Part shown: positions 11,221 through 12,411 of the stretch, piece after piece
Layout of the letters: every line of letters starts with the position of its first letter
Position numbering within the stretch: the first letter of the stretch is position 1
Source: an uncultured Opitutales bacterium
GTDB taxonomy: Bacteria > Verrucomicrobiota > Verrucomicrobiia > Opitutales > Intestinicryptomonadaceae
Assembly: GCA_934613415.1 (NCBI GenBank)
Contig: CAKTSY010000002.1
Coordinates: 1 to 32,000, forward strand
Direction of reading: 5' to 3'
Length of the DNA stretch: 32,000 nt
The notes under the pieces: generated by a model
The model's database searches: none
Seen by the model: only the letters and a program-made list of their open reading frames with translations
Told to the model about the DNA's origin: nothing
Program-made: the position numbers and the translations under genes

Positions 11221-11235
11221 CGTATTTAAAATACG
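11221..11235. repeat. Near-palindrome A1 (cgtatttaaaatacg); candidate recombinase core site or operator
   Basis: Perfect 7-1-7 palindrome located 24 nt upstream of the operon ATG at 11197. It is the reverse complement of A2 at 14 of 15 positions. Confidence 0.6.
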
Positions 11236-11349
11236 AATGTCAAATATAAATTCAAAGGATAGTTTGAATTATTTGTAGGAAATAAGTTACGCAAAATCGG
11301 CCGAGCGGTTGGAACAGATTTTAAGGGCGATTTTTACAACGTAAGATAT

Positions 11350-11378
11350 ATAATTTTATGTTTTTCAAAAGCTTGCAA
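11350..11378 (-). promoter_or_regulatory. Sigma70-like promoter candidate facing the TIR-like/giant-protein operon
   Basis: On the minus strand: TTGCAA (11378-11373), a 17-nt spacer, then AATTAT (11355-11350). It lies inside the A1-A2 bracketed segment. The promoter consensus for this organism is unknown. Confidence 0.3.
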
Positions 11379-11394
11379 CAAAGCAAACGCCTAT

Positions 11395-11409
11395 AGTATT
11401 TTAAATACG
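11395..11409. repeat. Near-palindrome A2 (agtattttaaatacg); candidate recombinase core site or operator
   Basis: The inner 6-1-6 is palindromic (GTATTT-T-AAATAC). It ends at the base immediately before the recombinase ATG at 11410. Its centre is the complement of the A1 centre, so the two sites are in inverted orientation. Confidence 0.6.
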
Positions 11410-12411
11410 ATGGACAAAATGGAATTATTGATAAACGAGGTATTAAACGGTGCAAATGTTTCTGCGTTAGACGCGGCAAGATTTGTTAGAAATATTTTAG
11501 ACGCAAAGCCTAAAAATTGCAGTTTAACCGATGCACAATTTATTTTAAAAGTTATTGAAGCAGGCATTCGCAATATAAGGGCAAGCGAAATGCCCTTTAA
11601 TCAAGGTTTTGCAATTTATTACGAAAGCAAAAAGCACTTACGCAAAGACTCTTTGCGCGACATTTGCTGCATTGGCAATAGGCTAATTAAAACCAAGCCC
11701 GAATTGGCAAAGTGCAACTTTTCGCAACTAACTGTGATTGAATGTGAAATGTGGATAAACACTGCTTTTGCAACCCCAAGCCAGCAAAACAAGGCAAGGG
11801 CTATGTTGCACGCCCTATTTGAATTTGCAATAAGGCGCAACTGGTGCGACAAAAACCCGATAAAGCATATCGAAAAAAGGCGCGTTATAGAAAAGGAAAT
11901 TTTGCCGCTAAAGCTAAGCCAAATTAGGCGGCTTATAGAAGTTGCAAAAGGCGAATGTGGAGGCATTTGCCTGCCTGCCGTAGCCCTTTTGATATATGCG
12001 GGGATTAGACCTCGCGAAGTTAGGCGTTTAACGTGGCAAGATATTGATTTGCAGGAAAACACAATAACAATACGCTCGCTGTGTTCTAAAACAGGCGGGG
12101 TGCGCCAAGTGGAAATTATGCCGCAACTAAAGCGCATTTTAAGCAAAACAATAGGTTTTGGCAAAATATGCCCGAAAAACTGGGAGCGCCGTTGGCAGAA
12201 CATAAGGCAAAACAGCGGTTTTAGCCGCAAAGCGTTGCCGTGGCAGGCCGACGTTTTGCGGCACACCTTTGCCAGCTTTTTTGCCAAGCGTTTTAAAGAT
12301 TTGCCTAGGCTGCAGCTAAATATGGGGCACAGCAACCAAATGCTATTAAAAAGCCGCTATATAAATATGCGCAATATCTCGCGTGCCGAGGCCGAAAAGT
12401 TTTTTAACTAA
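11410..12411 (+). CDS. Tyrosine site-specific recombinase (phage-integrase family)
   Basis: 333-aa ORF with the catalytic set in order: R (YAGIRPREVRRLTWQDI), H-x-x-R (VLRHTFASF), H (NMGHSN) and Y (KSRYINM). Confidence 0.85.
   Translation: MDKMELLINEVLNGANVSALDAARFVRNILDAKPKNCSLTDAQFILKVIEAGIRNIRASEMPFNQGFAIYYESKKHLRKDSLRDICCIGNRLIKTKPELAKCNFSQLTVIECEMWINTAFATPSQQNKARAMLHALFEFAIRRNWCDKNPIKHIEKRRVIEKEILPLKLSQIRRLIEVAKGECGGICLPAVALLIYAGIRPREVRRLTWQDIDLQENTITIRSLCSKTGGVRQVEIMPQLKRILSKTIGFGKICPKNWERRWQNIRQNSGFSRKALPWQADVLRHTFASFFAKRFKDLPRLQLNMGHSNQMLLKSRYINMRNISRAEAEKFFN

Follow-up and report, generated by a model that had tools for sequence, protein, structure and literature searches.

A Family of Recombinase-Linked Putative DNA Inversion Switches in Uncultured Opitutales of the Human Gut

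1. Introduction

Site-specific DNA inversion switches, or invertons, are a main route of surface variation in gut symbionts, where they bear on phage resistance, immune recognition and colonisation. To our knowledge, most catalogued examples are from Bacteroidota, and those from the Verrucomicrobiota are confined to Akkermansia. Here we describe a locus in a 32,000-nucleotide (nt) stretch of contig CAKTSY010000002.1, hereafter the window, which derives from human gut metagenomes and belongs to an uncultured Opitutales bacterium (Verrucomicrobiota). In it, a 212 base pair (bp) intergenic gap separates the gene of a 333-amino acid (aa) tyrosine recombinase from a divergent operon encoding five proteins. 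We consider it likely that the gap carries an inverton which places this surface-protein operon under phase-variable control. The general type of switch is already known, and the Opitutales examples constitute a distinct and previously undescribed family of invertons; a literature search yielded no paper joining the terms 'inverton' and 'Opitutales'.

The closest published relatives are the invertons of Akkermansia. In Akkermansia muciniphila their repeats carry the motif CGGATT..AATCCG, which PMC13343947 credits to Jiang et al. 2019, and one group, number 138, has repeats of about 17 nt and an interior of about 158 bp, exemplified by the coordinates 2092093-2092109-2092267-2092283 (PMC11892184). 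They are enriched near PEP-CTERM genes (PMC11892184), a capsule (cps1) inverton has been described (PMC13343947), and an embedded promoter motif has been reported for them. The Opitutales switches are found in the same phylum, in the human gut and in many copies per genome; they have closely similar dimensions, with repeats of 16 nt enclosing 161 bp at the window locus, and they too adjoin PEP-CTERM, surface or capsule genes. However, their repeats conform to (A/T)NGTATT-NNN-AATACN(A/T), with a core GTATT-NNN-AATAC that is not the Akkermansia motif, and most of them own a recombinase gene, the ATG of which lies inside one repeat arm. Since the words recombinase and invertase are absent from the Akkermansia capsule paper (PMC13343947), the Opitutales family provides a candidate enzyme clade to test there.

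Bacteroides genomes also carry many invertons, adjoining tyrosine recombinase genes and surface or capsule operons (PMC11892184, PMC4747536), and the invertase genes near them are generally oriented beyond control of the inverton promoter (PMC11892184). These invertible promoters (Tsr-type, 'DNA invertase cluster 3b') share with the Opitutales switches a gut-symbiont host, neighbouring tyrosine invertases and surface cargo, whereas the ATG of the Opitutales recombinase abuts the switch in 55 of 55 cases, and the window recombinase matches no NCBIfam model of a Bacteroides invertase.

The fimS element of Escherichia coli is 314 bp long with 9-bp repeats, is flipped by the adjacent FimB and FimE recombinases and controls a surface structure; expression of the fim recombinases depends on the orientation of the switch. 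The Opitutales loci are comparable in having a short invertible segment with a putative promoter, short inverted repeats and an adjacent tyrosine recombinase, together with a possible IHF-like bending motif (CAA-N4-TTGA) within the segment. They differ in dimensions and in that the fim recombinase genes overlap no repeat, and FimB and FimE are only distantly related, with no NCBIfam or Pfam subfamily shared beyond PF00589. The anatomy of the sites recalls Cre/loxP, with palindromic arms and a short asymmetric centre that sets direction, although sequence links to Cre go no further than the superfamily and the likeness is one of site sequence anatomy.

Three features give the Opitutales family its interest. 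Its sites follow a defined grammar, in which arms enclose a 7-bp centre and the length of the segment is fixed; a candidate invertase is linked in cis to each switch, and the enzyme-site pairs are therefore directly testable; and its recurrent cargo consists of giant secreted pentapeptide-repeat PEP-CTERM proteins together with glycosyltransferases, including a member of glycosyltransferase family 11 (GT11). Our reading builds on comparisons of sequences, which demonstrate the repeats, three allelic states, the architecture of the family and intact catalytic residues in the recombinase.

2. Inverted Repeats and Recombination Sites

The gap extends from the operon ATG at 11197 (minus strand) to the recombinase ATG at 11410 (plus strand). 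The original prediction placed near its ends two 15-bp near-palindromes, at 11221-11235 and 11395-11409, which were reported to be reverse complements at 14 of 15 positions. All of these coordinates were confirmed, as was the 14/15 match, and a repeat finder revealed a better register, in which a perfect 16/16 inverted repeat ATCGTATTTAAAATAC lies at 11219-11234 and 11396-11411 with 161 bp between the arms. In this register the right arm takes in the A and T of the recombinase ATG, which form the final two bases of the outer arm of the recombinase-proximal site. Chance does not explain the repeat. When the intergenic sequence was shuffled 2000 times with dinucleotides preserved, the longest inverted repeat was 14 nt and 0/2000 shuffles reached 16. 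Moreover, the 32-kb window holds only two perfect inverted repeats that are 13 nt or longer and have a spacer of 50-750 bp, the one described here (11219/11411) and a related one at 15268-15284/15422-15438 which is considered in Section 8. The locus thus shows inverted repeats bracketing a short intergenic segment.

The sites are lox-like in anatomy: an asymmetric centre of 7 bp is enclosed by palindromic arms (ATCGTA ... TACGAT), and it is this centre alone that gives the near-palindromic sites their direction, TTTAAAA at one end and TTTTAAA at the other. It had been argued from these centres that the sites lie in inverted orientation, and this holds throughout the family: each of the centres TTTAAAA, TTTAGAA, TTTATAA and TTTGTAA invariably has its reverse complement as partner. 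Inversion and deletion breakpoints in relatives fall within the 13-bp core of the sites. Between the centre at the window locus and its reverse complement there is one difference, as against three for the other centres of the family.

The two sites also align as direct repeats, at 23 of 28 positions. A direct-repeat, att-like arrangement as the primary geometry was nevertheless rejected because the centres are reverse complements in 62/62 pairs. The same alignment, together with the near-perfect palindromic character of each site (TCGTATTT-A-AAATACGA), would also fit operators of a dimeric transcription factor which regulates the divergent genes with no recombination taking place. Operators explain neither a segment that is reverse complemented or precisely deleted, with breakpoints inside the sites, nor the obligatory pairing of centre and reverse complement in 62 pairs, and we regard this explanation as scarcely credible; as an account of operators only, it is contradicted by the flipped and deleted alleles that are described below.

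3. Allelic States of the Segment

Inversion of the segment, with a flipped state at orthologous loci, had been predicted, and such a state was found in six of the loci compared (L002, L092, L093, L198, L199 and L204). The compared loci, given L-numbers, are assemblies from different samples or from related strains or species; the identical recombinase sits on 14 further contigs outside this set. L002 is a related Opitutales metagenome-assembled genome (MAG) with a recombinase 91% identical to that of the window, syntenic downstream genes and the same repeats, but its interior is reversed: the reverse complement of window positions 11235-11395 matches it at 142/163 positions and the direct orientation at 92/183, which is the chance level. 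The segment has the L002 orientation also in L092, L198 and L199, with recombinases 84-90% identical to that of the window, and in L093 (75%).

The two ends of the segment are distinguished by a TTGACA hexamer (Section 5). The end carrying it is directed towards the operon in L001, L203 and the window, and towards the recombinase in L204, L002, L092, L198 and L199. L203 and L204 were reached from the operon side of the switch, via homologues of the 316-aa first protein of the operon. They originate from separate sequencing runs and their 316-aa proteins are identical, yet opposite ends of the segment lie at their operon junctions. Against constructs made in silico with the T-end towards the operon or towards the recombinase, L203 scored 172 and 116, respectively, and L204 scored 113 and 146. 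A second locus gave the same picture: L116 and L101, from two human-gut samples, carry it in opposite orientations, with flanks matching at 21/22 and 22/22 positions and interiors at 143/150. Both orientations, with breakpoints in the repeats, are thus seen in comparisons between assemblies.

L201 and L202 represent a third state, which lacks exactly the segment and retains one site. L201 is a 189-kb contig, syntenic on both sides through LigA, MutL, tRNA synthetase, porin, a GH28-like protein, the recombinase, 317-aa and 1888-aa proteins and glycosyltransferases, and L202 is an independent assembly. In these alleles the recombinase ATG, the single site ATCGTATTTAAAATACGAT and the operon flank are contiguous, with 47 nt between the called genes, and a deletion construct scored 171 for L201 and 151 for L202, as compared with at most 99 for either orientation. 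The centre base beside the operon flank differs from that in both orientations of the full switch; such a junction cannot be produced by mis-joined k-mers of the two orientations, and the allele is therefore real. Segment-less sites were seen at the window locus only, in two of the 55 recombinase-abutting sites.

Lox sites with symmetric spacers permit both inversion and deletion. The nearly symmetric Opitutales centre would similarly permit both reactions, in line with the deletion allele of L201 and L202. With a single base distinguishing the centre at the window locus from its reverse complement, the sites may now and then recombine in the 'direct' alignment, and it is plausible that the deletion allele arose in this way.

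4. A Family of Recombinase-Linked Switches

The recombinase family has more than 1300 database relatives, and one MAG carries at least seven copies, several of them at contig ends. At all 55 recombinase-abutting sites examined the recombinase ATG overlaps a repeat arm, and for 51 of these sites a partner, its centre reverse-complementary, lies no more than 260 nt away; the remaining four are the partnerless sites of L201 and L202 and two on contigs too short to tell. In L003, L004 and L007, each paralogue (67-75% identity) is accompanied by a repeat pair of its own, the right arm of which overlaps the ATG. A metagenome scan with TTGACANNNGTATTNTAAATAC yielded 95 stretches, about 45 of which have a partner with a reverse-complementary centre while the rest are unpaired chance matches; core-to-core distances in the paired stretches are 139-180 bp, or 165-180 bp where a recombinase is adjacent. 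Loci L189-L197, fetched by protein identity alone, show the same architecture and further centres, TTTATAA and TTTGTAA, which brings the variants known family-wide to four (TTTAAAA, TTTAGAA, TTTATAA and TTTGTAA). By analogy with heterospecific lox variants, these centres could insulate loci from one another. The arm base beside the core covaries: some loci have ATC/GAT, others ATG/CAT.

Where inspected (L003, L004, L007, L093, L189, L190 and L195), the recombinase gene and the gene on the far side of the switch diverge. ATG triplets, which are candidate starts only, occur no further than about 45 nt from the repeat in the majority of 38 flanks. Pentapeptide-repeat PEP-CTERM proteins and homologues of the 316-aa protein recur as cargo; four other invertons of the family have, as the first gene beside them, homologues of the latter with 38-40% identity. 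Across paralogues 55-70% identical to the window recombinase, the repeat, the fixed spacing, the ATG overlap and TTGACA are under clear purifying selection.

Segments and flanks do not always travel together. L142 and L168 carry a segment identical at 154/155 positions between unrelated flanks, and L142 and L179 share flanks around unrelated segments. An 89%-identical homologue of the 316-aa protein adjoins a recombinase of only 65% identity and sites with the centre TTTGTAA (L195-L197). The shuffling of segments and flanks (L142, L168, L179 and L115) suggests either cassette exchange or conversion between paralogues.

These observations bear on another explanation of the locus, that the segment is a promoter cassette which can be excised and inserted, a very small mobile unit that the adjacent recombinase serves and that moves between recombinase-linked sites, with inversion as a side reaction. 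The precise empty-site alleles, the exchange of segments and flanks, the 89%-identical first gene next to a divergent recombinase and a different centre, and the presence of segments homologous to that of the window beside four different operons (window, L002, L092/L198 and L093) are all in keeping with it. However, integration of a one-site circle would leave direct repeats and all 62 pairs are inverted; empty sites occur solely at the locus whose centre is asymmetric at one base; the shuffling is between strains and could be caused by gene conversion or homologous recombination; and a 177-bp circle would be hard to form and recapture. We therefore consider a mobile cassette improbable as the primary nature of the locus and prefer an inversion switch.

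Many of the contigs break off within the recombinase gene or just a few bases into the switch (L005-L011, L199, L200, L203 and L204), and database entries for the family are dominated by short contigs of 1.2-3 kb. The contig ends are consistent with assembly breaks at repeats that are multi-copy or of mixed orientation, which suggests that the family degrades metagenome assemblies of these organisms.

5. Polarity of the Segment and the Predicted Promoter

The segment is polar. In 62/62 repeat pairs, TTGACA occurs exactly 3 nt from the core and at one end only; these pairs include seven independent segment types fetched by protein homology, without TTGACA as a search term, as well as the second inverton of the window, identified through the similarity of its repeats. 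Upstream of the hexamer lie a conserved T-rich tract and the palindrome TTCAAA-N6-TTTGAA (minus strand in the window), and the opposite end carries a conserved ATAT.C and the CAA-N4-TTGA motif. The latter is located at 11364-11378 in the window and at equivalent positions in all family segments, approximately 25-40 nt from the non-TTGACA end, and it resembles the IHF consensus WATCAANNNNTTR. Such a possible IHF-like motif would suit bending of the DNA to synapse sites about 170 bp apart.

A promoter aimed at the operon had been proposed earlier at the minus-strand element TTGCAA-N17-AATTAT. The element is present and points as described, but it matches the consensus at 8/12 positions, which is below the scan threshold, and it is perhaps not a functional promoter; it reads TTGCAA-N17-TATTAT in L002 and L093 and lacks positional conservation in paralogous segments. 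The position and direction of the promoter are deduced from sequence, and on balance we favour the TTGACA end as the most likely promoter exit. Set against the operon-side flank, this end forms a TTGACA-N16-18 site with a -10 in the flank in 12/29 independent loci, while on the recombinase side no such promoter-like site is formed in any of the 29. The TTGCAA element points the same way as TTGACA, and the direction deduced for the window is therefore independent of which of the two is real.

Since the TTGACA end faces the operon in the window, the assembled state is probably operon-ON. The opposite arrangement, seen in most relatives, in which TTGACA faces the recombinase ATG, would be operon-OFF. 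TTGACA faces the recombinase in about 50 recombinase-linked loci and the cargo only in the window, L101, L132, L179 and L203. There is no room outside the switch for a leader on the recombinase ATG. One possibility is a leaderless recombinase transcript from TTGAAW-N16-17-TATTYT, a combination which passes the scan criteria in only 4/29 loci.

6. The Recombinase

Although it resembles Xer recombinases and integron integrases, the recombinase falls below every NCBIfam cut-off, with 51 bits against 220 for XerA and 44 against 335 for XerC, and its closest relative in the PDB is XerA (E 3e-6). In an alignment of 27 family members, R200, K227, R284, H307 and Y317 are invariant. The enzyme, a nearby site-specific recombinase with these catalytic residues intact, thus appears catalytically plausible.

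The closest annotated relatives are integrases of the Akkermansia prophages Chambord, Moulinsart and Chantilly (32% identity, 97% coverage, E 9e-51), which have in common with it an N-terminal region and a DVLRH motif. This motif occupies residues 281-285 of the window protein (window positions about 12250-12264) and is the same in the Chambord integrase. The Chambord integrase gene adjoins an apparent 3' part of a tRNA, unconfirmed by a tRNA finder, which would fit an att site; the window protein, in contrast, has neither phage genes nor a tRNA nearby. This kinship and the tRNA-like neighbour fit a domesticated offshoot of a Verrucomicrobiota integrase clade.

The absence of a mobile-element context had been remarked upon earlier and withstood closer inspection: no tRNA was detected in a search of the window, no phage or insertion sequence content around the recombinase, and no plasmid matches by blastn. 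When viral contigs were scanned for the 16-mer repeat, 78 were hit, in each case by one unpaired match attributable to chance, and no phage link emerged. The proposal that the protein is a domesticated invertase rather than an integrase fits these results, there being no att sites or cargo here. The inverted repeats enclose only 161 bp, unlike the situation expected for the integrase of a phage or of an integrative and conjugative element with att sites.

Another role for the enzyme, in Xer-like dimer resolution or as a remnant integrase, would leave the repeats as relics of rare inversions that became fixed. This would accommodate the occurrence of all orientation differences between assemblies, and the recombinase is Xer-like by profile and related to prophage integrases. 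It is difficult to reconcile with the two orientations found among strains with an identical 316-aa protein and again at a second locus with interiors 95% identical, with breakpoints that always fall within the 13-bp core, or with the purifying selection on repeat, spacing, ATG overlap and TTGACA. Furthermore, dimer resolution by XerC, XerD or XerA is disfavoured by the sub-cut-off scores, and seven or more copies in one MAG are incompatible with a single dif system. We judge such a relic to be very unlikely, rather less probable than the mobile cassette of Section 4, and retain active inversion as the explanation of the locus.

7. A Possible Mechanism

On this basis, the 333-aa recombinase would bind the two inverted lox-like sites, 161 bp apart, and recombination within the 7-bp centre would flip the segment. 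The segment would be polar in function, its TTGACA end supplying the -35 part of an outward-facing promoter which, in the state captured by the window, would be directed towards the operon for the 316-aa protein, the 1889-aa PEP-CTERM protein and three glycosyltransferases, turning it ON. Owing to the near-symmetric centre, occasional recombination between the sites as direct repeats may delete the segment and leave a locked allele with a single site.

Several points weigh against this interpretation. All of the orientation differences are between assemblies from different samples or from related strains or species. The enzyme is assigned to the sites by adjacency only, at 55/55 sites, and the first His of the HxxR motif is replaced by an invariant Asp281 (in DVLRH) in all 27 aligned members. 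Within the segments no complete sigma-70-like promoter is positionally conserved in either direction, and in the window a plus-strand promoter-like sequence, TTTACA-N18-TATGTT at 11333-11362, points the opposite way. Finally, a -10 hexamer occurs in 14/38 flanks against 8.3 +/- 2.5 in shuffles, and some control windows reach 13-14; about 2% of the shuffles reach the observed count, a modest and weakly positive enrichment.

A more elaborate joint reading combines four elements, and we offer it tentatively, as a combination that is more likely to fail in some part than to hold as a whole. First, the promoter may be split, with the -35 and T-rich tract on the segment and the -10 in the fixed operon flank, such that it would function in one orientation only. 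Second, as the sequence that the recombinase would bind contains the start codon of its gene and, probably, the point where transcription begins, the enzyme may regulate itself, either by self-repression or by expression in one state. Third, the 7-bp centres may act as a spacer code, insulating or selectively coupling the seven or more paralogous recombinase-switch modules of a genome into a network. Fourth, segments may occasionally be excised and swapped between modules, and would thus constitute mobile promoter cassettes.

8. Gene Content of the Window and the Second Inverton

The features of the locus are summarised in Table 1.

Table 1. Features of the window and of the segment-less alleles. 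Positions are those of the window unless another locus is named; the strand is given as + or -, with a dot where it does not apply.
Feature	Position	Strand	Remarks
Three glycosyltransferase genes: GT25, GT11, GT25 with capsule-synthesis domain	1008..4557	-	Domain search
1889-aa pentapeptide-repeat protein, main cargo	4576..10245	-	Pentapeptide E 3e-130
316-aa cytoplasmic protein, first gene of the putatively switched operon	10247..11197	-	No family assigned
Operon-proximal site	11219..11237	.	Outer arm ATC, 13-bp core GTATTTAAAATAC (11222-11234, centre TTTAAAA), inner arm GAA
Putative invertible segment	11235..11395	.	161 bp, TTGACA end towards the operon in the window
TTGACA hexamer, candidate -35 of an outward-facing promoter	11238..11243	-	3 nt from core
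TTGCAA-N17-AATTAT, promoter-like element of the original prediction	11350..11378	-	Overlaps CAA-N4-TTGA motif (11364-11378)
Recombinase-proximal site	11393..11411	.	Inner arm ATA, core GTATTTTAAATAC (11396-11408, centre TTTTAAA), outer arm GAT
333-aa tyrosine recombinase, candidate invertase	11410..12411	+	Phage_integrase PF00589, E 3.5e-13
Second inverton, no adjacent recombinase	15268..15438	.	Perfect 17-nt repeats TAGTATTTATAATACTA at 15268-15284 and 15422-15438
Segment-less allele	L201 7950-8000; L202 620-670		Syntenic to window 11198-11411

The divergent operon consists of the genes for the 316-aa protein, the 1889-aa protein and the three glycosyltransferases. For the 316-aa protein, a domain search and PADLOC gave weak or marginal TIR-like matches, and its structure model (pLDDT 69.5) yielded, in a fold search of the PDB, weak matches resembling nucleoside deoxyribosyltransferase, DNPH1 and SARM1-TIR over residues approximately 116-316, with a best E of 3.5e-3. 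Apart from the marginal TIR match, PADLOC assigned neither the recombinase nor the first operon genes to a defence system. The 1889-aa protein has, as read from its termini, a signal-like N-terminus and a PEP-CTERM anchor, the latter scoring 20.3 bits with PEP_CTERM TIGR02595 (cut-off 16).

The glycosyltransferase genes lie downstream of the 1889-aa gene in the same direction, and their order is syntenic in L201. The GT11 member, at 2849-3751 (E 5e-37), stands in the operon with the two genes of glycosyltransferase family 25 (GT25). The GT11 family includes alpha-1,2-fucosyltransferases, and its presence in the operon hints that a surface glycan or the giant protein is fucosylated.

The remaining genes of the window are housekeeping genes, namely a class II aminoacyl-tRNA synthetase, MutL, LigA, an ABC/FtsX transporter, sugar kinases and a DeoR regulator, and they include the neighbours of the recombinase. 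An Rfam scan of positions 10000-17000 returned solely a sub-threshold FsrA match at 16924-16964 (E 0.25), and no known RNA explains the region.

The second inverton of the window belongs to the same family and has the centre TTTATAA/TTATAAA and an interior of 137 bp. Its TTGACA (minus strand, 15291-15286) faces away from a downstream pentapeptide-repeat gene of 471 aa at 15484-16899, and the three invertons without a recombinase (this one and those of L160 and L171) all point away from their gene. The second inverton and the 471-aa gene (window 15249-16980) are absent at the syntenic position in L002 (6838-6999) and L201 (4032-4122), where the gap lies between the porin and tRNA synthetase genes; their absence in two relatives implies that inverton and gene were gained or lost together as a block.

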